Source: an uncultured Alphaproteobacteria bacterium (GTDB lineage Bacteria; Pseudomonadota; Alphaproteobacteria; UBA6615). Taken from it: 64,000 bases of DNA. The position numbers and the translations under genes were made by a program. How positions within the stretch are numbered: position 1 is the first letter of the stretch; every line of letters starts with the position of its first letter. Where the stretch lies: the NCBI GenBank assembly GCA_964276015.1, contig CAXYDO010000002.1, forward strand, positions 162,151 through 226,150, read 5' to 3'. The notes beneath the pieces are model-generated. The model searched no databases, was not told the origin of the DNA, and saw nothing but the letters and a program-made list of their open reading frames with translations. This document shows positions 1 through 60,850 of this stretch, piece after piece.

Positions 1-3000
1 GCGTTCCCCGGCGATGCCTCGGAAATAGCACTCACCAGTCACCGCGCCATACAGCACCGTGTTGCCGACAATCATGCTTTTATCCGGGTCGATGCCGCTC
101 TTCGGGTTCGGCCGCACGATCAGCTTGCCGCCCGAGAGCCCCTTGCCCACATAGTCATTGGCCTCGCCCACGAGATCGAGGGTCACGCCCCGTGCGACCC
201 AGGCGCCGAAGCTCTGCCCCGCCACCCCGTTCAAGGTGATCCAGATAGTGTCTTCTGCCAGCCCAATATGCCCGTATTTACGTGCGATTTCACCCGACAG
301 CATGGCGCCGGCGGTGCGATCGGTGTTGCGGATCGGAAGTTCAGCCTTCACCGGCGTTCCATCTTCGATGGCTGGCTTGGCCAGCTCGATCAGCTTGCGA
401 TCCAGGATGTCCTTGATCGGATGGTCCTGATCGGTGGTACGATGAATATTCACATGGTCGGCTTCTGCGGGCTTGAAGAACAGCTTGGTGAAGTCCAGCC
501 CCTGAGCCTTCCAGTGCTTAATCGCGGATTGTGTGTCGAGCATATCGGTCTGGCCGATCATTTCATTCACGGTCCGGAAGCCCATCTCGGCCATCAGGCC
601 ACGCACTTCCTCGGCGACGAAGAAGAAGAAATTGACTACGTGCTCTGGTGCGCCAGTGAATTTCTTGCGCAGCTGCGGATCCTGGGTCGCGATGCCAACC
701 GGGCAGGTGTTGAGATGACATTTGCGCATCATGATGCAACCGGTCGCTATCAGCGGGGCTGTGGCAAAGCCGAACTCATCGGCTCCCAGCAACGCGCCAA
801 TGACCACATCCCGGCCCGTCCGCAAACCACCATCGACCTGCACAGATATACGGCCGCGCAGATCGTTCATCACAAGCGTCTGCTGGGTCTCGGCGAGGCC
901 GATCTCCCAGGGCGAACCGGCATGTTTGATGGACGTCAGCGGCGAGGCACCCGTGCCACCCTCAAAACCGGAAATAGTCACGTGGTCCGCGCGGGCCTTG
1001 GAGACACCGGCCGCAACAGTCCCGACGCCAATCTCGGAGACCAGCTTCACGCTGATATCGGCCGCCGAATTGACGTTTTTGAGATCGAAGATCAGCTGAG
1101 CCAGATCCTCGATCGAGTAAATATCATGATGGGGTGGCGGTGAAATTAGTCCAACCCCGGGGGTCGAATGGCGCACTTTGGCGATCACCGCATCGACCTT
1201 GTGACCGGGTAGCTGGCCGCCCTCACCGGGCTTGGCGCCTTGGGCCATCTTGATCTGAATCATGTCTGAATTGACTAGATATTCCGCCGTCACACCAAAC
1301 CGCCCTGAGGCCACCTGCTTGATGGCCGAGCGCATGGAATCACCGTTCTTCATCGGCGTAAAGCGATCGATTTCCTCGCCGCCCTCACCGGTGTTCGACT
1401 TGCCGCCGATCCGGTTCATGGCAATCGCCAGGGTGGCGTGGGCTTCCCGGCTGATCGACCCGAAGGACATCGCTCCCGTCGCGAAACGTTTGACGATATC
1501 TTCGGCTGACTCCACCTCGTCAAGGGATACCGGAGCACGCCCTGCCTCCTCGGCATCCTTCAGGCGGAACAGACCGCGCAGGGTCATCAGGTCCTGGTCT
1601 TGCTTGTTGATCGCCGCCGCATAGGACCGGTACTTGTCCGGCAGCTCTCCGCGCACCGCGTGCTGCAGATCGGCGACCGTATCCGGGGACCAGTTGTGCT
1701 TCTCGCCACGAATACGGAAGGCGTATTCGCCCCCCACATCGAGCGCGCTTTCATAGATAGGGTTGAGCCCGAACGCATCCGCGTGACGCTGCATGGTTTC
1801 CCGGGCGACCTCGGCTAGCCCGACACCTTCGACAGCGGTATGGGTGCCGGTGAAATACTTCTCCACGAAGGACGTCTTCAGCCCGACCGCATCGAAAATC
1901 TGCGCCCCGCAATAGGACTGATAGGTTGAGATGCCCATCTTCGACATCACCTTCAGTAAGCCCTTATCGATGGCCTTGATGTAGCGGCGGATGACCTGCT
2001 CATCGCTGAGGTCCTCGTCCACCTTCTCGCGCAGATCAGCGAGCGTCTCGAAGGCCAGCCACGGGTTGATGGCTTCCGCGCCAAACCCGGCCAGGGTCGC
2101 AAAGTGGTGAATTTCGCGGGCCTCTCCGGTCTCAACGACCAGACCCACAGACGTGCGCAGGCCTTTGCGAATGAGGTGGTGATGCACAGAAGACGTCGCG
2201 AGCAGCGAGGGAATGCCGATACGTTCCGGCCCGACCAGACGGTCCGACAGGATGATGATGTTGTAGCCCTGATCCACGGCTTCTTCGGCGCGGGCGCAAA
2301 GATTGTCGATCGCCTGCTCCATATACTCCACGCCCCGGCTCACCCCGTAGGTGATGTCGAGGGTCTCGGTCTGGAACTGGTTGTCGGCGATATCCCCGAT
2401 GGCGCGGATTTTCTCCAGCCCCGCATTGGTGATGATCGGCTGACGCACTTCGAGGCGCTTCAGGCTGGAAGTCCCCTCCAGATCAAGCAGATTGGGACGC
2501 GGCCCAATAAACGAGACCAGGGACATGACGATCTCTTCGCGGATCGGATCGATCGGCGGGTTCGTCACCTGGGCAAACAGCTGCTTGAAGTATGACGCCA
2601 GCGGCTTTGACCGGGACGACAGGGCTGAGAGCGGCGTGTCGGTGCCCATGGCGCCAGTGGCTTCCTGGCCCGTATGCGCCATGGGGAGCATTAGGAATTT
2701 CAGATCTTCCTGAGAATAGCCAAACGCCTGCTGCCGTTCGAGCAGCGGCACCGGAGAGACCGCAGGGGCGCGCCCGACCTCGGGAAGGTCCTTCACCCGG
2801 ATCTGGGTACTGGCGAGCCACTCCTGATAGGGATGGCTACTGGCGAGCTCGGTCTTAAGCTCCTCATCAGAGATGGCCTTGCCCTTCTCCAGATCGATCA
2901 GCAGCATCTTGCCCGGCTGCAGACGCCACTTGCGGACGATATTCTCTTCGGGAATGTCGAGCACGCCCATTTCAGAGGCCAGCAAGACAAACCCGTCCTT

Positions 3001-4239
3001 GGTCTCCAGATAGCGGGCCGGGCGCAGACCGTTTCGATCCAGCGTCGCACCCACCACCTTGCCGTCCGTAAACGCGATGGCGGCCGGACCATCCCAAGGC
3101 TCCATCAGGGCGGCGTTGTACTCGTAGAAGGCGCGGAAGGTCTCATCCATCAGCGGATTGCCGGCCCAGGCTTCCGGGATCAGCATCATCATCGCATGGG
3201 GCAGCGTGTAACCGCCCTGGTAGAGCAGCTCAAGCGCGTTATCGAAACAGGCCGAATCCGACTGCCCTTCAAGGGAGATCGGCCACAGCTTCTGCATGTC
3301 GTCGCCAAACACCGGGGAGGACATGGTCGCCTGACGGGCCGCCATCCAGTTGTTGTTGCCGCGCAACGTGTTGATCTCGCCGTTATGACAAATCATCCGG
3401 TACGGATGGGCAAGCGGCCAGGACGGGAAGGTGTTGGTGGAAAAACGCTGATGCACCAGCGCCACGGCCGAGATGACCCGCTCGTCCTGCAAATCCTTGA
3501 AATAGGTGACCACGCCGTCGGCGAGCACCAGCCCCTTATAGACGATGGTCCGGGACGAGACCGACACCGGGTAATAGCCAATGGCGGCCTCCGGGTGCTC
3601 ACGACGCAGATAGTTGGACGCCACCTTGCGGGCCACGAACAGCTTGCGCTCGAACGCCTCATCATCGGCGATACCCGGGCCCCGGGCGATAAACGCCTGG
3701 CGATGGGACGGCTCGGTCGGCTTTACGCTTTCACCCAAGATCGAGGATTCCACCGGCACGTCGCGCCAGCCGAGAATGCTCAGACCTTCCTGCTTTGCAG
3801 CCATCTCGTAAGCCGCTTCAACAGTGGCGTGATGGGCGGCATCGCGCGGCAGCATCAGCTGGGCCACGCCGTAATGGTTCGGGGCGGGCAGATCGAAGCC
3901 AAGCTTCTCGACTTCGGCCGCAAAAAATTCATGGGGCAGCTGGATCAGAATCCCGGCGCCATCCCCGGCCTTCGGATCCGCGCCAACAGCGCCCCGATGC
4001 TCGAGATTGCAGAGAATCTTCAGCCCGTCTTCAACGATCTTGCGGCTGCGCTCATTGCGGATCGAGCAGATCATGCCTATGCCGCAGGCGTCATGCTCGT
4101 TGGCCGGGTCATAAAGCCCCTGGGCCGAACGCTGGCCGGCATAAAGGCCGTTACTTTCGCCATCATGGATAGCCGGTTTGGACACAGCTGATCCGGCTGC
4201 GGCACCTGAAAGCGGCAATATTGTTTTCTCGTTGGCCAT
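1..4239 (-). CDS. gltB: Glutamate synthase (NADPH) large subunit, partial. The C-terminus lies beyond the window start; the N-terminus is at 4239.
   Basis: Minus-strand translation from the ATG at 4237-4239 reads [10 protein letters not shown]...[17 protein letters not shown]...[22 protein letters not shown], the classic GltB N-terminal amidotransferase domain. Translation near position 1 shows the C-terminal GXXGG(K/Q)SFGA...[14 protein letters not shown] motif. The + strand ORFs 268..1143 and 2833..4191 are antisense shadows. Confidence 0.95.
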
Positions 4240-4309
4240 GATCAGCTTCACTTCCCGAATATCTCAAGTGCCACCAACGACACGCGCGGTGCAGCACTTT
4301 TTTCACAAA

Positions 4310-35930: not shown

Positions 35931-36626
35931 ATGACTGTGAAATACCACCTGATCAGCTCGTTTACGTGACCATGGGTCCAGCGCGCCGTGATCCTCTTGC
36001 GTGCCAAGGAAATTGAGTTCGATGTCACCTATATCAACCTGCTCGACAAGCCCGAGTGGTTTCTGGAAATATCACCTCACGGGAAAGTCCCGGTGCTCAA
36101 GGTGGGTGAAGAAATTCTGTTTGAATCCAATGCGATTGCGGAGTATCTCGACGAAGTGGTGCCGCCACGCCTCCACCCCGAAGACCCGCTCGAACGAGCC
36201 AAGAACCGGGCCTGGACCGATTTCGTGCTGACCTTCTCGAGCGCCATAAGCTCGATCCATTACTCCAAGACCAAAGAGGACATGGAGACCGCCGTCGCCA
36301 ATGTGCAGGACAAGCTTGCCAAGGTTGAAGCCGCACTCGCCGGACGCGGCAATGATGGCCCGTACTTCAATGGGCCTGAACTGGCCCTGGTCGATGCTGC
36401 TTATGCCCCTTTCCTGCAACGCTACACCTTCGTCGATAAGGTTCTGAACAACGATGTGTTGAAGGACTACCAGCTGATCAAGGCCTGGGCTGACACTCTG
36501 CTGTCAGACCCCCGGGTCACAGGCGCCGTCCCAGACAACTTCGAGGACGAGTTCGTCGCCGGCATCAAGCGCCGGGAAGTGTACGCCGCACAGTTCTTCA
36601 ACGACGCCAGCGCGGCGGCTGAATAG
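35931..36626 (+). CDS. Glutathione S-transferase, omega-like (CPF/CPW-type thioredoxin-fold N-domain), with an in-frame TGA at 35967..35969 at the catalytic cysteine position. It is either a selenocysteine-candidate protein or a nonsense pseudogene. Conservative alternative: GTG start at 35988.
   Basis: The ATG at 35931 has a good RBS (aaggga). The reading frame is MTVKYHLISSFT-[TGA]-PWVQRAVILLRAKEIEFDV...NLLDKPEWFLEISPHGKVPVLK. This aligns residue for residue with GSTO-type ...[21 protein letters not shown]...NKPEWFF..VPVL, with the TGA on the Cys of the CPF motif. Confidence 0.5.
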
Positions 36627-44579: not shown

Positions 44580-45629
44580 TTACTCTGCAGCCTGCGCTTC
44601 GTCGCCTGCCCGGCCTGCAAAATGCGGCATGACCTCTTCGGCGAATTGCTGCAGGGCGTCGAACGAACCCGAGAGATCGTGCAACAGGATATTACGAACC
44701 CCGAGCTCGTAAAGCTTCTCCGTCCGCTCGATCATCTCTTCCGAAGAGCCAAGAATGGCCCCGGCTTCAGAGACATCGGTCGGGTGGCCCCGGTTCTTAT
44801 GACGTTCGGCCGGAACAAATGTCTTCGACTGGAATTTCGGATCCGTCGCCAGAGACTGTACTTCGGTCAGGAACTTCCCGCGCAGCACATGAGCTTCGGC
44901 GCGCTGATTGTCATTATTGGCGACCATCAGGCCGCGGGTGACGGCCACTCGGGCAGGATCGAATTCCACCCCCATCTGGTCGAGCTCATCGCGGTAAAAG
45001 CCCAGGGATTCACCGATCGTATCGAACGTCGGCACCTGCGCGAGCATCAGATTATTACCGTTACGCGCGGCACCACGGATGGAACCTTCGCTCGCAGCCC
45101 CTACCCACATGGGCGGGTAGGGCTGTTGCACCACGGGGGGCTCAACAATGATGTCGTTGAACTGATAGCGGTCTGATTTATAGGACCAGCGCTCGGTTTC
45201 CGTGAAGGATCGCTTCAGCAGTATGATCGATTCTTCGAAAATTTCCTGCGCATCACCCATTTCCAGGCCAAAACCATGGAACTCATTCGCCCGATAGCCG
45301 CGTCCGATCCCAAAATCGTAGCGTCCCTTGGACAGCTGATCGATGGTCGCGACCTGCTCGGCCAGCAAAATGGGGTTGTGCCAAGGCACCACAACCACGG
45401 CGCTGCCCAGGCGGATTTTCGTGGTAATCCCGGAAAGATAAGAAATGTAGTTGAGGGTCGCGGAAAGCTGGGAGAACCCGGTGAAATGGTGCTCCACCAG
45501 CCAGGCACTCGAGTACCCATGCTTTTCAGCGGCCTGAATGTATTCGCCAAATTCGTGATAGCCGAGTGCGGCCTCGGTTACGACCTCGCCGGGTACCGCC
45601 TGTGCACCCCCAAATAATCCAAACTTCAT
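44580..45629 (-). CDS. LLM-class (luciferase-like) flavin-dependent oxidoreductase.
   Basis: 349 aa from the internal ATG (MKFGLFGGAQAVPGEVVTEAALGYHEFGEY...) with RBS gggagag. The track start is a TTG five codons upstream. Confidence 0.9.
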   Translation of the reverse strand: MKFGLFGGAQAVPGEVVTEAALGYHEFGEYIQAAEKHGYSSAWLVEHHFTGFSQLSATLNYISYLSGITTKIRLGSAVVVVPWHNPILLAEQVATIDQLSKGRYDFGIGRGYRANEFHGFGLEMGDAQEIFEESIILLKRSFTETERWSYKSDRYQFNDIIVEPPVVQQPYPPMWVGAASEGSIRGAARNGNNLMLAQVPTFDTIGESLGFYRDELDQMGVEFDPARVAVTRGLMVANNDNQRAEAHVLRGKFLTEVQSLATDPKFQSKTFVPAERHKNRGHPTDVSEAGAILGSSEEMIERTEKLYELGVRNILLHDLSGSFDALQQFAEEVMPHFAGRAGDEAQAAE

Positions 45630-45651
45630 GGCACTCTCTCCCAATTATACG

Positions 45652-46689
45652 TTATTCGGCAGCCTGCACACGGTCGCTGTCATCGGTAAATTTCGGCATC
45701 ACCTCTTCGGCAAACTGCTGCAGCGCCTCAAATGATCCGGAAAGGTCGTGCAACAGGATCGTGTGCACCCCTTCGTCGCGCAGTCGTTCAACCCGTTCGC
45801 CCATCTCGTCTTTGTCGCCGAGCACAGCGCCATTGTTAGAAATCGCATCCGTGTCGTTCGATACGGCTACCGGGCTGAAGGTTTTCGGCCCCTTAGACTT
45901 GTCTGTAGCCAGAACTTGCACCTCGGAGATAAATTTGCCCCGCAGGATATGCGCATCAATGCGCTGATTGTCGTTATTGGCGACCATCAGCCCGCGAGTG
46001 ACGGCCACCCGATCCGGATTGTAGTCCTTGCCGAGTTTGTCGAGTTCATCCTGATAAATGCGAATTTTCTCGCCAATCGCCTCAAACGGAGACATTTGGT
46101 CCAACAGCAGGTTGTAATCTTTGCGGGCCACATCGCGGATCGAGCCTTCGCTGCCTGCCCCGACCCACATTGGTGGATAAGGTTTTTGTACAACCGGCGG
46201 CTCCACGATGATGTCGTTGAAGGTCCAGCGGTCAGATGTATAGGACCAGCGTTCGGTCTCCGTGAAGGAGCGCTTCAACAGCATCGTCGATTCTTCGAAG
46301 ATGTCCTGTGCTTCACCCATATCAAGGCCGAAGCCGTTAAATTCGTTGGCGCGATAGCCGCGACCGATGCCGAAATCATAGCGCCCCTTGGACAGCTGAT
46401 CGATCGTCGCGACCTGTTCGGCCAGCAGGATCGGATTGTGCCAGGGCACGACGACCACAGCGCTTCCAAGTCTTATTTTCGACGTAATGCCAGATAGATA
46501 GGAGATATAGCTAAGAGTTGCAGACAACTGCGAAAAGCCGGTGAAATGATGTTCAACCAGCCAGGCGCTCGAATAGCCGAGCTTCTCGGCCAGCTGGATA
46601 TACTCACCGTATTCATGATAGCCGAGCGCGGCCTCGGTCACTACATCGCCGGGTACCGCCTGCGCGCCGCCAAATAATCCAAACTTCAT
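45652..46689 (-). CDS. LLM-class flavin-dependent oxidoreductase, tandem paralogue.
   Basis: 345 aa, ~80% identical to the downstream copy, with long identical blocks such as WLVEHHFTGFSQLSATL.YISYLSGIT.KIRLGSAVVVVPWHNPILLAEQVATIDQLSKGRYDFGIGRGYRANEF. Confidence 0.9.
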   Translation of the reverse strand: MKFGLFGGAQAVPGDVVTEAALGYHEYGEYIQLAEKLGYSSAWLVEHHFTGFSQLSATLSYISYLSGITSKIRLGSAVVVVPWHNPILLAEQVATIDQLSKGRYDFGIGRGYRANEFNGFGLDMGEAQDIFEESTMLLKRSFTETERWSYTSDRWTFNDIIVEPPVVQKPYPPMWVGAGSEGSIRDVARKDYNLLLDQMSPFEAIGEKIRIYQDELDKLGKDYNPDRVAVTRGLMVANNDNQRIDAHILRGKFISEVQVLATDKSKGPKTFSPVAVSNDTDAISNNGAVLGDKDEMGERVERLRDEGVHTILLHDLSGSFEALQQFAEEVMPKFTDDSDRVQAAE

Positions 46690-49090: not shown

Positions 49091-49831
49091 CGTAAACCTG
49101 ATGCCCCCTGCCGAAAAACTCAGAAACCGCGCTATGATATCATCGCATATGAACTGAGATCGGAGATCACGTCTGGCGACTTTGCCTTGAATGACATGCT
49201 ACCCACCGAAATGGAGCTGTGCGCACGGTATGATGTCAGTCGCCACACGGTTCGCGCGGCCCTGCAACGGTTGCGCGAGCAGGGATTTGTCTCAATGCGT
49301 CGCGGTTCGGGAACCCGGGTCATCTCAACGGCCCCGAAGGAACCTTACGTACGATCATTTAACTCATTGTCCGAATTGCTGCATTACCCGGATACAAATT
49401 TCGAACCAAACGATATCGCTCACGTGATCCTTACGCCGGCGAATGCCGAGCGCCTTTCCCTGCAGGAGGGAACAGATTGATTCCGCATTTCTGGCATTCG
49501 CCGCTCAATTTCCAGCAATCAGCCGGTCTGCTGTCAGGAAGTTTTCGTGCTCCCGGAATATGAGTCCACGGCGCGGCGCCTATTAACCGAGCATATCCCG
49601 GTTCACCGAATTATCGAGCGCACCCATAACAATCGTATTGCACAGGCACAGCTGGAAATGGCTGCGTGCCGGGTCTCTAAAGAGGTGGCGGGCAAGCTAG
49701 ACTTGGCCCCAGGCCGCGCGGCGATATCTATCCTGCGCCGTTACGCACGCCCGAACGACACGGTGTTCGAAACCACGGTCAGCATTCACCCGAAAGACCG
49801 TTTCGTCTACTCACTGGGGATCACCTATTGA
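49091..49831 (+). pseudogene. GntR/HutC-family transcriptional regulator (wHTH plus UTRA domain), disrupted by at least two frameshifts and a premature stop.
   Basis: ATG 49091 gives MPPAEKLRNRA. After a frame change the sequence reads ...KPRYDIIAYELRSEITSGDFALNDMLPTEMELCARYDVSRHTVRAALQRLREQG...GSGTRVIS..., a GntR HTH ending at 49480. A third frame covers the middle of the UTRA domain. Track ORF 49547..49831 (...VHRIIERTH...DTVFETTVSIHPKDRFVYSL) is the UTRA C-terminus. Confidence 0.7.
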
Positions 49832-49889
49832 CGAGGCCGTAGACTGACCTTTAGGTCTTGCACGGCGGACAAACATCCATTTGCCGCAG

Positions 49890-52136: not shown

Positions 52137-53012
52137 ATGTCCCATATGCCCACTTCCGATGATTTCGAAGACATCCTATTCGAGGTCAAAGACAACGTCG
52201 CCTGGATCACGATCAATCGTCCGAATTCACGCAATGCCTTTCGTGAGCACACGCTCGACGAGCTGATCCACGCCTTCAAATCGACCCGCAACGACGCGTC
52301 GATCGCTTGTGCCGTTGTCACCGGCGCAGGCGACAAGTCCTTCTCGGCTGGCGGCGATTTCGGCGCGATGATGAAGCTGAACTGGACCAACGCCTATCAC
52401 TGGAACGACCGGATGCTCGGCACGGCCATGACCATTCGCGGCCTGCCAATCCCGGTCATCGCCATGGTCAATGGCTGGTGCATGGGCGGCGGACACGAGC
52501 TCGCCCTGTGGTGTGACATGGTGATTGCTTCCGACCAGGCCCATTTCGGCCAGTCCGGTGCCAAAGTTGGCGCCTGCCCGACCGTAGGTGCGACCCAGTA
52601 CATTCCCCGCATGATTGGCGAGCGTCTGGCCCGCGAGATGATCTTCCTCGCTCGTACTTTCTCGGCCCAGGAAGCCGTCGATATCGGCCTGATCAACAAG
52701 GTTGTGCCGCATGCCGATTTGCTCGCAGAAACCCAGAAATGGTGTGAGACCATCAAGGGCCATAGCGGGCAGACGATCCGGATGACCAAGAAGTCACTCA
52801 ACCATGAGTCCGATGAGCTCTATGCGTCGTGGCAGCACGGCATGGAGTTGCTGGCTCATGTCTGGGGCAGCGAGGAATCCATGGAGGGTATGCAGGCCTT
52901 CCTCGACAAGCGCAAGCCGGACTTCATGAAGTTCCGCATGAAGAACAAGGAAGTCGTCGACACGTATCTCGATGATCTCGCGAACGACCGCAACCAGCTC
53001 AAAAAGGGCTGA
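52137..53012 (+). CDS. Enoyl-CoA hydratase/isomerase (crotonase) family protein.
   Basis: 291 aa. Oxyanion-hole segments (...AVVTGAGDKSFSAGGD... and ...AMVNGWCMGGGHELAL...). Confidence 0.85.
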   Translation: MSHMPTSDDFEDILFEVKDNVAWITINRPNSRNAFREHTLDELIHAFKSTRNDASIACAVVTGAGDKSFSAGGDFGAMMKLNWTNAYHWNDRMLGTAMTIRGLPIPVIAMVNGWCMGGGHELALWCDMVIASDQAHFGQSGAKVGACPTVGATQYIPRMIGERLAREMIFLARTFSAQEAVDIGLINKVVPHADLLAETQKWCETIKGHSGQTIRMTKKSLNHESDELYASWQHGMELLAHVWGSEESMEGMQAFLDKRKPDFMKFRMKNKEVVDTYLDDLANDRNQLKKG

Positions 53013-53022
53013 GTACGAAACC

Positions 53023-54225
53023 ATGACAGGCACCGAAACTCCCGGCGCCCTCGACGGCATCCGCGTGATTGATCTCACGCGGGTGCTCGCAGGGCCGTTC
53101 TGCGCGATGATGCTCGGCGATATGGGTGCCGACGTGGTCAAAATCGAACAGCCCGGTCGGGGCGATGATACGCGGGCCTGGGGGCCACCATTTGTTGGTG
53201 AGGAATCCGCCTATTTCCTGGGTGCCAACCGCAACAAACGCGGCATGACCCTCAACCTCAAGGACGAATCCGCCCGTAAGGTCCTCGCTGAGTTGCTTCG
53301 CGACGGCGATGTGGTGATCGACAATTTCAAGCTCGGCACCATGGCGAAGTTCGGTTTCGATGATGCTTGGTATGAAGCCAACGCCCCAAAAATCGTGCGC
53401 GCATCGATCCTCGGATATGGATCCACCGGTCCGCGCGCCGGCCTGCCCGGCTACGACTTCCTGCTCCAGGCTGAAAGCGGTCTGATGAGCATCACGGGAG
53501 AGGCCGATGGCGATCCCATGAAGCTCGGCGTGGCCATCGTCGATTTGTGCACCGGGATGTACGCCCTATCGTCAATTCTTGCGGCATTGCAGGCACGCCA
53601 CACGACCGGCAAGGGTCAATACGTGGAAGTGTCTCTCTACGACACCGGGATATCCCTGCTCGCCAATGTTGCGGCGAACTACCTCGCTTCGTACAAGGAA
53701 TCCGGACGGTACGGCAACGGCCACCCGAACATTGTGCCCTACAACGCCTACCCCACGCGCGACAGCATGATCGCGCTCTCGGTTGGTAATGACGGCCAGT
53801 TCCAGACATTTTGTAACGCGGTCGGTCAGGATGAATGGGCCGACGATACGCGGTTCTCCCGCAACCGGGACCGGGTCGAAAACCGTGAGGCCTGCGACGA
53901 GATGATCTCTGCGCTCCTGAAGACGGACGACACCGCAGCCTGGCTCGACAAACTGCAGGCGGCAGGCGTGTCCTGCGCCCCTATCAATACGGTGGCGCAA
54001 GCCTTGACCGCCGAGCACACCATCGCACGGGAGTTGGTCACCAAGGCCGTTCACTCCACCGAAGGTGAGATCGACCTTCCGGGCATTCCGTTCCGCCTGA
54101 TGGGCACCCCGGCCAGCGTGCGCCGTGCGCCGCCGACTCTGGGCGAACACACAGAAGAAATCCTGACCGCGCTGGGAAAATCAGCCGACGAGATTGTAGC
54201 GCTACGCGAGTCCGGCGCGATCTGA
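53023..54225 (+). CDS. CoA-transferase family III (CaiB/BaiF-type) protein, third copy.
   Basis: 400 aa from the ATG at 53023 (MTGTETPGALDGIRVIDLTRVLAGPFCAMMLGDMGADVVKIEQP...). The track ORF starts 17 codons earlier, overlapping the crotonase gene. Confidence 0.9.
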   Translation: MTGTETPGALDGIRVIDLTRVLAGPFCAMMLGDMGADVVKIEQPGRGDDTRAWGPPFVGEESAYFLGANRNKRGMTLNLKDESARKVLAELLRDGDVVIDNFKLGTMAKFGFDDAWYEANAPKIVRASILGYGSTGPRAGLPGYDFLLQAESGLMSITGEADGDPMKLGVAIVDLCTGMYALSSILAALQARHTTGKGQYVEVSLYDTGISLLANVAANYLASYKESGRYGNGHPNIVPYNAYPTRDSMIALSVGNDGQFQTFCNAVGQDEWADDTRFSRNRDRVENREACDEMISALLKTDDTAAWLDKLQAAGVSCAPINTVAQALTAEHTIARELVTKAVHSTEGEIDLPGIPFRLMGTPASVRRAPPTLGEHTEEILTALGKSADEIVALRESGAI

Positions 54226-54332: not shown

Positions 54333-55139
54333 ATGGAAAAAAATCGATGTCGGACGCTTGACCCTTAACGTGGACGAGATGGGTGATGGCCCGCCGTTCA
54401 TTTTCATTCCCGGCCTCGTTGGCGTGATGAATTCCTAGGAGTATCAACGCAAAATCTCCTCGGACAACTACCGCTGCATCTCCTTTGACCGCCGCGGTAC
54501 AGGCAACAGTGACCGACCGGATGCAGGCGGTTATTCAACCCAGCACATCGCCGACGATATCATCGCATTGATGGACACGATGGGCATCGAGAAAGCCCCT
54601 TTCGCCGGCACATCTGCGGGCGGCGCCATTCTACAAAACCTGGCGATCAATCGCCCTGATCGCCTGCGTTGCTGCATCGTCTCCAACACCTGGACCAAGG
54701 CGGACGAATATATCCGCCGGGTACAGACCGCCCGCCGCGAGATCGCCCTTTCCGAGGGGCCGGAGGCCTATGTGCGGGTGAGCTCGCTGTTCACCAATGG
54801 CTGCATGCAGTTCCGCCACAACCTCGACAAGGTGATGGAACTCGAAAAGCGTTCGCTTGCGACAATCGCCGAGCCGGAAATTCTGGCGGCGCGCATCGAC
54901 ATGACCCTGAACCATGATCGCCTGGACGAGATCACCAAGATCAAGAACCCGTCCCTTGTCATCGGGACGCGCGACGACGCAACTGTCCCCTTCTACTTCT
55001 CTGAAGATTTGCACGAAGCCATCGAAGGCTCAGAGCTGATTATCGTCAAAGAAGGCGAGCATTAGTCTTTCCGTCGGCATGCCGACGAATGGGCAGCGCA
55101 TATCCGTCCGTTTCTGGAGAAGTGGGAAGACAAAATCTA
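54333..55139 (+). pseudogene. Alpha/beta-fold serine hydrolase disrupted by a +1 frameshift in an A7 homopolymer (54337..54343) and two in-frame TAG codons (54436..54438 and 55063..55065).
   Basis: With 6 instead of 7 A's the sequence reads MEKIDVGRLTLNVDEMGDGPPFIFIPGLVGVMNS-[TAG]-EYQRKISSDNYRCISFDRRGTGNSD...FAGTSAGGA (G-x-S-x-G nucleophile)...IIVKEGEH-[TAG]-SFRRHADEWAAHIRPFLEKWEDKI. This is a complete hydrolase fold including the catalytic His region, all in one frame. Only a 165-aa fragment survives as an ORF (54568..55065). Confidence 0.7.
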
Positions 55140-56132
55140 ATGCGCGTTGGCATCGTCGGGATTGGATGGTGGTCAGATGTTCTGGCCGGGGTTATTAAAA
55201 AATCGGACAAGCTGGAGCTTCGCGCCGGTTTCACGCGTTCCCCCGAAAAGAACGCAAAGTTTGCGGAACCCTTCAACTGCGAAACCATGGCCACCTGCGA
55301 GGATATGCTCGCACTCGATGATCTCGACGGGGTGATCCTGACGACGCCTAATTCGGCACACCTCCCCGGCACTTTGGCCGCCGCCGCCGCCGGCAAACAC
55401 GTGTTCGTCGAAAAGCCTGTCTCCAATACGATCGCCGATGGACGCACCATGATCGCAGCGTGCGATGCCGCGAATGTGGTTCTCGCGGTCGGGCATTCCT
55501 ATCGGCGCCACGGGGCGCTCCGCCATCTCAAGAAAATGATCGACGATGGGGAACTGGGGTGCGTCAGTCGGGCCGAAGGCATATTTTCAAATGACAATGG
55601 CCTGAAGCTAAAGCCAGGTGCGTGGCGCACCGATCCGGAAGAAATTTCCGGCGGATGCCTGATGCAAATCGGCATCGACCAGATCGACAATTTGCTTTAT
55701 CTGCTCGGAGACATTCAGGAACTGACCGCTTATGTGGATCGCCTGGAAACAGAACCTGAAATTGAGGACGTCACATCCGTTCTGATGCGCTTCCGGTAAG
55801 GGGCCATCGGTTTCGTGGCGTCAGACTACATCTCTCCACGACGCTTCATAATCAACGTCCACGGCACAAAGGCCAACGCATTCTTCGATATGTAAATTGA
55901 CGGGTTACGGATTCAACGCACCGGAGAGAGCAAGCCCTCGCCGGTCGAGTTTCCGCCCGCCGATCACTTGCTTGCTGAGCTCGAAGATTTCGCCGACGCC
56001 GTCACGCAAGGACGCAAGCCGGAAGTTGATGGCACGGATGCCCTCAATCCACTGGCCATCGTCCTGGGCGCCGTCAAATCTTCTCCCGAGAGACGCTCCG
56101 TCCCGCTGTCGGAGATATTAGGCGAGGCCTGA
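55140..56132 (+). pseudogene. Gfo/Idh/MocA family oxidoreductase interrupted by two in-frame TAA codons (55797..55799 and 55893..55895), with no frameshift.
   Basis: ATG 55140 (MRVGIVGIGWWSD...EKPVSN...). After the first TAA the same frame continues GAIGFVASDYISPRRFIINVHGTKANAFFDM-[TAA]-IDGLRIQRTGESKPSPVEFPPADHLLAELEDFADAVTQGRKPEVDGTDALNPLAIVLGAVKSS..., a typical Gfo/Idh/MocA C-terminal domain ending at the TGA at 56130. Confidence 0.7.
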
Positions 56133-60562: not shown

Positions 60563-60850
60563 TTAAGTCGTCCAAGTTATCGTCCGCACAAATATGTCGT
60601 TGGACATCGAGAGAATACTGACCATGGAATCATCAATGATGATCGTGAAGACGTCGGGACATCGCTTATACGCCGCCCGGAGTGATGTCGGATCCCCGGT
60701 CATCAGGATGATTTTGACATCGCTATCGGTGTCGGCGAGCTTGTCGACGGCCCCGACCCCATCGAGGATCGGCATCCGGATATTCATGATGACCAGAATG
60801 GAGCGACGATCGGAGGTTTCCTCAGACACATTCTCGGAAGCAAGAGACAT
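60563..60850 (-). CDS. Orphan response-regulator receiver-domain fragment (C-terminal two-thirds only) with Asn at the phospho-acceptor position. Likely a gene remnant.
   Basis: 95 aa. ...ILVIMNIRMPILDG...KIILMTGD... aligns to CheY FVISDWNMPNMDG...PVLMVTAE, with D57 replaced by N. The beta1-alpha1 N-terminus is absent in all upstream frames. It lies in a lower-GC patch (60476..60940). Confidence 0.45.
   Translation of the reverse strand: MSLASENVSEETSDRRSILVIMNIRMPILDGVGAVDKLADTDSDVKIILMTGDPTSLRAAYKRCPDVFTIIIDDSMVSILSMSNDIFVRTITWTT

Follow-up and report, generated by a model that had tools for sequence, protein, structure and literature searches.

The most familiar cases of heavy pseudogene load are those of host-restricted pathogens, in which gene decay is genome-wide. 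Classical bacterial pseudogenes typically persist as full-length remnants with premature stop codons and single-nucleotide slips in mononucleotide tracts; their ratio of nonsynonymous to synonymous divergence (dN/dS, or omega) is close to 1, and their substitutions are biased from GC to AT. All these traits recur in two adjacent genes, encoding an alpha/beta-hydrolase and a Gfo/Idh/MocA-family oxidoreductase, which lie in a 64-kb stretch of DNA (hereafter, the window; contig CAXYDO010000002.1, positions 162,151 to 226,150 of the forward strand) from an uncultured marine alphaproteobacterium. Unlike the pathogens, this organism is free-living, marine and known only from metagenomes; one gene cluster has decayed in it, and ~20 kb of adjoining sequence is clean. 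The locus also resembles the known cases of parallel gene inactivation within a species, since distinct and independent disabling mutations are found in the same genes of separate conspecific lineages, whose alleles are designated here B (the window), C and D.

On sequence comparison, we consider the two genes to be genuine, old pseudogenes fixed in one marine alphaproteobacterial lineage, and not products of sequencing error, recoding or phase variation, with a probability of roughly 0.85. Both display full-length homology to functional genes, real disabling lesions and an omega of ~1. This is ordinary pseudogene biology; added interest comes from the parallel loss of the same module and from stop-creating changes that are more numerous and more clustered than has been accounted for. 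The importance of the locus is modest: a suspected artefact or "nascent pseudogene" becomes a well-dated population-level case and might be exploited as a natural experiment, both for gene dispensability and for the raw spectrum of mutations (including strand asymmetry and the clustering of substitutions) in a marine organism that is uncultured.

Lesions in the hydrolase and oxidoreductase genes

The hydrolase pseudogene occupies positions 54333..55140 on the + strand, the intact alleles encoding 268 amino acids (aa); the preliminary description of the locus gave the same start and an end at 55139, the actual end being 55140. Its ATG (54333-54335) is followed by GAAAAAAA, harboring a run of seven A residues (A7, 54337..54343) that puts this ATG out of frame. 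The coding frame (phase of 54334) is open through to the TAA at 55138-55140 apart from two TAG codons. One of them, at 54436..54438, replaces an invariant Trp (TGG>TAG, a G>A change) and is otherwise found only in allele D (L045/P0128); the other, at 55063..55065, arose by a C>G transversion (TAC>TAG) at an invariant Tyr just past the catalytic His.

The repaired hydrolase matches PF00561 (Abhydrolase_1) with an E value of 9e-23 and a score of 81.6 bits (cut-off, 25.8), and the intact alleles carry the Ser of GxSxG and the His of GGH. The RutD equivalog (TIGR03611) scores 149 bits, below its cut-off of 238.5, and the assignment of the hydrolase holds at the superfamily level only. The NCBIfam scan returned no equivalog-level match for either the hydrolase or the oxidoreductase, hence no substrate or pathway can be named for them. 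In the protein database, the intact 268-aa protein P0001 is 96% identical to the window hydrolase, and its 90% cluster includes the intact P0001, P0124, P0126 and P0131 beside several types of fragments; among the matches listed in this cluster, fragments and intact proteins stand at 11:4.

The oxidoreductase pseudogene (55140..56132, + strand; 329-330 aa when intact) begins with an ATG at 55140 overlapping the hydrolase stop (TAATG), and its frame runs to the TGA at 56130-56132, being broken only by two TAA codons. These occur at 55797..55799, in place of an invariant Ser (TCC>TAA, a tandem CC>AA change), and at 55893..55895, in place of a conserved Asp (GAC>TAA, two changes). The N- and C-terminal GFO_IDH_MocA domains are recognized in Pfam with E values of 3e-22 and 7e-24, and PF01408, PF22725 and PF02894 all exceed their cut-offs. 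On re-reading, the sequence showed the A7 run and each of the four in-frame stops at the positions previously reported for them.

The lesions were compared with relatives of two kinds. A GTDB-wide scan yielded syntenic orthologues from other species only (74-80% nucleotide identity; metagenome-assembled genomes (MAGs) of marine Alphaproteobacteria or "Rhodospirillaceae"); the pseudogene pair itself is 80-90% identical to its orthologues in other species, with synteny kept. Contigs encoding proteins of the hydrolase cluster are 97.7-98.9% identical to the window and therefore belong to the same species. Two of these sisters, L032 and L043 (98.5-98.9% nucleotide identity), encode an intact 268-aa hydrolase and an intact 329-aa oxidoreductase. 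The sister contigs were placed by BLAST-based projection onto the window, the comparison covering 38 of its 64 kb, and the substitutions were polarized with ten or nine outgroup species together with the conspecific sisters. A megablast search of plasmids with the window sequence gave no match.

An exact-protein look-up of the intact CoA-transferase encoded immediately upstream (53023-54225) recovered independent contigs of the window haplotype. Five contigs from other samples and pipelines were matched: ENA ERZ24888618 (L027) and, from Logan, ERR12117711 (L028), ERR9575721 (L029), ERR12117690 (L030) and ERR12117716. They are 99.99-100% identical to the window and, wherever they span a lesion, reproduce it: A7 in four of four contigs, both TAGs in three of three and both TAAs in two of two. 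The sole single-nucleotide polymorphism against two other assemblies in 9.8 kb, T/C at 54790, falls within the hydrolase pseudogene and alternates TTC (Phe) with CTC (Leu) at a position where Phe is invariant across species. Since the lesions recur base for base in assemblies from other samples, they are not assembly errors, and the earlier suggestion that the A7 run might be a sequencing or assembly error can be set aside.

The ancestral states of all five lesions are known. At these sites, the sisters carry six bases in place of the A7 run (A6, AAAGAA or AAGAAA) and TGG, TAC, TCC and GAC in place of the four stops. In the polarization of the substitutions, the outgroup species match the sister state at ~27 of 33 sites. 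Because all sisters have six bases in the run, the extra A is a +1 insertion, as had been proposed ("one A too many"). All sisters and outgroups have sense codons at the four stop positions, and the stops were reached by one single transition (TGG>TAG), one transversion (TAC>TAG) and two double hits (TCC>TAA and GAC>TAA). Thus, the previous attribution of the stops to single C->T or G->A changes is valid for TGG>TAG only. The previous view that the genetic code has not been reassigned was upheld, and, with five polarized lesions reproduced in independent assemblies, so was the assignment of both genes as true pseudogenes. The window oxidoreductase also has one extra in-frame 3-bp GCC repeat unit relative to the sisters; the outgroup length suggests that this difference represents a deletion in the sisters.

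The presence of the same interruptions in close relatives had been put forward as a sign of an older, possibly tolerated state. In the sense that the interrupted state is fixed in a repeatedly sampled lineage, this sign is indeed present.

Loss of constraint and the extent of decay

Constraint was estimated with a simple Nei-Gojobori count of the proportions of nonsynonymous and synonymous differences per site (pN/pS), without a branch model, between the window and the intact L043 allele, with 14 flanking genes compared in the same way. The flanking genes differ at 117 synonymous and 39 nonsynonymous sites (pS 0.0325, pN 0.0035, pN/pS 0.107). The corresponding figures are 4 and 14 for the hydrolase (pN/pS 1.04) and 4 and 16 for the oxidoreductase (pN/pS 1.29), so that the two pseudogenes combined show a nonsynonymous-to-synonymous ratio of 30:8 versus 39:117 in the flanks (Fisher p = 1.2e-9). 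When intact, the hydrolase is under strong constraint, its dN/dS in comparisons across species being 0.05-0.09. From every outgroup, the window copy is separated by ~12 more nonsynonymous differences than the L043 copy.

The derived changes of the window copy include replacements at residues invariant in all aligned orthologues, namely DHRG>DRRG, AH>AP, GTSTGG>GTSAGG, CIFSN>CIVSN, LGRVS>LGCVS and GIHQIDN>GIDQIDN; in the last of these, the oxidoreductase His that is invariant in the 14 orthologues aligned has become Asp, at 55677. Altogether, ~29 derived substitutions are found over 1782 sites (1.6%), i.e., about half of the flank synonymous divergence (3.25%), which would mean that constraint has been absent for approximately the whole life of the window lineage. 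In relative terms, the loss of constraint appears to have roughly coincided with the split from the lineages carrying the intact alleles. With pN/pS of ~1 against 0.11 in the flanks, these ~29 changes and the replaced invariant residues, the notion that the genes had not drifted and that their inactivation was very early does not stand.

The 42 sites at which the two genes differ from the sister majority (not all of them derived in the window) are dominated by GC>AT changes, comprising 14 G>A, 3 C>T and 6 GC>TA. An equal GC>AT bias is seen among the flank changes private to the window; the spectrum is that of ordinary bacterial mutational bias with no special damage. On the + strand, G>A and C>T stand at 14:3 in the two genes, 6:1 in the remnant of a neighboring regulator gene (see below) and 29:33 in the flanks. 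Of 16 4-kb segments, 14 have a negative GC skew on the + strand and the other two a skew of about zero, so the + strand appears to be the lagging strand across the whole window. Given this negative skew, the G>A excess on the + strand would fit the replication-strand cytosine deamination seen in the absence of selection. A motif shared around the G>A changes, which would be the signature of a methyl-cytosine hotspot, was looked for and not found.

Decay is limited to a single gene cluster and, judging from the comparison with sister sequences, is wider than the two enzyme genes. Upstream lies a pseudogene of a regulator of the GntR/UTRA family (49101..49847, + strand), which has an intact 248-aa allele in L043. 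In the window, it carries a shortening of A6 to A5 at 49114-49118 just after the ATG, a nonsense change (TGG>TGA, 49478-49480), an extra T (+1) near 49828 and 24-33 substitutions. Downstream, on the - strand, a response-regulator remnant (60563..60850) of 95 aa versus 138 aa lost the N-terminal half of its receiver domain in a 129-bp in-frame deletion between 11-bp GACCAGA(A/T)TGG direct repeats, and the Asp of its IMDIRMP motif, the putative phospho-acceptor, is Asn in the window. The genes standing between these remnants are constrained: the crotonase-family protein and the family III CoA-transferase (52137..54225, + strand), which serve as constrained controls, are intact, with pN/pS of 0.00 and 0.13 versus L043, and the protein of a 772-aa molybdopterin oxidoreductase is identical in L043. 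In a further sister, L046 (98.3% identical, 25.9-46.6 kb of the window), no split gene was detected and there was one 1-nt indel, for which the map of open reading frames (ORFs) suggests an intergenic position.

The same regulator and both enzymes have been lost independently in a second conspecific lineage. Allele C (L033-L042), for which JGI and SRA samples yielded no fewer than 16 contigs, has CCC>CC in the hydrolase at 54539-41 (fragments of 78 and 189 aa) and TTT>TT in the oxidoreductase at 55645-47 (fragments of 172 and 156 aa); where the GntR gene is covered, a nonsense C>T change at 49643 splits it into 181 and 62 aa. Over 1.8 kb, allele C differs from L043 at 9 positions versus 38 for the window, and it is what a truly young pseudogene looks like at this locus. 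Allele D (L045; P0128/P0129) is represented by fragments of 34 and 186 aa. The L045 contig (window 53914-55547) has in common with the window the TGG>TAG change at 54437 and a Tyr>Cys change in the oxidoreductase at 55297. It lacks nearly all the remaining changes derived in the window, including every one of the ~17 sites lying between 54437 and 55297, and has none of the flank-private sites; this pattern of sharing could be due to descent, short conversion tracts or recurrent mutation.

In one allele-C sub-lineage (L036), a 23-bp deletion at the equivalent of window positions 53698-53720 leaves the CoA-transferase in two pieces, of 247 and 163 aa; in this sub-lineage, decay is spreading to the neighboring gene. 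Truncated or split orthologues of the hydrolase and/or the oxidoreductase were also encountered in three MAGs of other species (L008, L022 and L023), where they may be real or represent assembly artefacts.

The favored course of events is as follows. The translationally coupled hydrolase and oxidoreductase probably lost their function at about the time when the window lineage left its conspecifics with intact alleles. Their unconstrained evolution has since brought ~29 substitutions, four of which are nonsense changes, and a +1 slip in the poly-A tract, with no large deletion. The adjacent GntR-family regulator and the response regulator have died as well, the decay remaining confined to the cluster, and in a second conspecific lineage other mutations have put this regulator and the two enzymes out of action. 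The regulator and the two enzymes probably constitute one functional unit, and relaxed rather than positive selection is the probable cause of its loss; parallel loss would imply that the module is dispensable, or costly, in much of the range of the species.

Competing explanations

An A7 homopolymer is a classic error site, and a homopolymer error combined with miscalled bases would account for the five lesions as a sequencing or assembly artefact. This is hardly credible: up to four other assemblies (ENA, Logan) concur at each lesion spanned, and the haplotype holds dozens of further consistent derived changes. An equally remote proposition is that the genes are still expressed via phase variation at the A7 run and/or stop readthrough or recoding, as might be suggested by the location of the poly-A tract directly after the ATG and by the occurrence of a truly recoded UGA in the window (in the glutathione S-transferase gene described below). 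Programmed frameshifting at the A run was rejected, as it would require a +1 shift and would be followed by the two TAGs. A phase-variable contingency gene, an option raised in the preliminary description, is opposed by the constant tract length in all four assemblies of the haplotype and by the two TAGs, which break the ORF even when its frame is restored. Programmed recoding of the four TAG/TAA codons (as selenocysteine (Sec), pyrrolysine (Pyl) or by readthrough) was likewise rejected: the positions are sense codons in sisters and outgroups and so are not conserved recoding sites, in contrast to the UGA of the transferase, which does qualify. An omega of ~1, the absence of a tRNA gene from the window and the loss of the invariant His of the oxidoreductase also speak against continued expression.

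The view that pseudogenization is very recent and nascent, with nothing else changed yet, draws on the full length of both pseudogenes, neither having an indel above 3 bp, and on the within-species level of divergence (~1.5% of nucleotides), hence a young age on the geological scale. It is nevertheless quite improbable, because pN/pS is ~1 across the divergence from the intact conspecifics, during which ~29 derived substitutions and five disabling lesions accumulated; two of the stops need two hits each, residues invariant across species have been replaced, and it is allele C, with its few differences from L043, that fits a young pseudogene. Adaptive loss, in which inactivation of the GntR-hydrolase-oxidoreductase module is favored in some waters so that null alleles recur and sweep, is possible although unlikely. 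The independent disabling of the same three genes in at least two lineages, the preponderance of fragments over intact proteins among the matches listed, the excess of stop codons and the maintained constraint on the intervening genes are all consistent with it. Still, parallel loss is equally expected of a module that is simply unused, contig counts differ from allele frequencies, and the stop excess is weak after allowing for the choice of the locus. It is more doubtful still that loss of the module is actively selected in wild populations, where nulls arose at least twice and seem to be more numerous than intact alleles among public metagenomes; if this were the case, the ~5-fold surplus of stops over neutral drift in the oldest allele, two of them made by double hits, would indicate either that complete silencing is selected for or that an unusual process mutates several nucleotides together.

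Several observations weigh against old, neutrally decaying pseudogenes as a full account. The same substitutions placed at random would produce 0.82 stops, whereas four are observed (~5x, P = 0.007), although P rises to ~0.035 once conditioned on at least two stops and the excess is weaker still since the locus was chosen for its stops. Five pairs of substitutions lie no more than 2 bp apart (54504-5, 54615-6, 55713/5, 55798-9 and 55893/5) versus ~1.2 expected, and two of these pairs make the TAA stops; the pairs may stem from multi-nucleotide mutation events. Hence, pure neutral drift by single-base changes does not fully explain the stop excess and the clustering. The GntR remnant has diverged from the sisters by 3.2-4.4%, i.e., more than the enzyme pseudogenes and more than simple dating would predict. 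Fragments of the genes may retain residual function, and the assemblies confirming the lesions may stem from one regional population, so that fixation is to be understood as applying to the sampled assemblies. The survey of decay covers the window beyond its first 26 kb, for which there is no sister sequence.

The in-frame TGA of the glutathione S-transferase and other features

A glutathione S-transferase (GST) containing Sec is listed among the families of the marine (Global Ocean Sampling, GOS) selenoproteome (PMC2398784). The GST gene of the window (35931-36626, + strand), which bears no relation to the two pseudogenes, resembles this family in having a conserved UGA at the position of the catalytic Cys, in the replacement of the UGA by a Cys codon in distant homologues and in a hairpin 11 nt downstream. 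Its TGA (35967-35969, in the context SSFT-[TGA]-PWVQRAV) is retained in ~27 related loci whose amino acid identity ranges from 98% to ~62%, and TGC or TGT stands there in homologues at or below 60% identity. The 40 nt following the TGA are almost invariant, synonymous sites included, and a 6-bp GCGCGC-N12-GCG(U/C)GC hairpin with one G-U/G-C alternation begins exactly 11 nt past the UGA.

No compensatory double changes were seen in this hairpin, folding of the single sequence over the region of the putative selenocysteine insertion sequence (SECIS) was no better than that of shuffled sequences (z = -0.04), and an Rfam scan of the whole window at gathering thresholds had no match to any family, SECIS families included. 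Therefore, the case for a SECIS element is built on conservation, the 11-nt spacing and the fold of the alignment. ARAGORN detected no tRNA in the whole window, and hence neither a local suppressor nor a local tRNA-Sec. By its conservation and position, the TGA is to be read as a selenocysteine codon and the gene as that of a selenoprotein GST, not as a pseudogene. The TGA had been counted as a further lesion; its conservation at the catalytic Cys in ~27 loci and the downstream hairpin run counter to this, and an annotation error, the labeling of a selenoprotein gene as a pseudogene, is thereby averted.

Two further regions of the window, both on the - strand, can be mentioned. Positions 44580-46689 harbor two tandem genes of luciferase-like monooxygenases (PF00296), which share ~76% nucleotide identity. 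Positions 1-4263 contain a frame that stays open for 1421 codons or more, shows a coding-like GC content at third codon positions (GC3) of 0.75 and runs off the window start; the + strand ORFs over the same interval are probably shadow frames.

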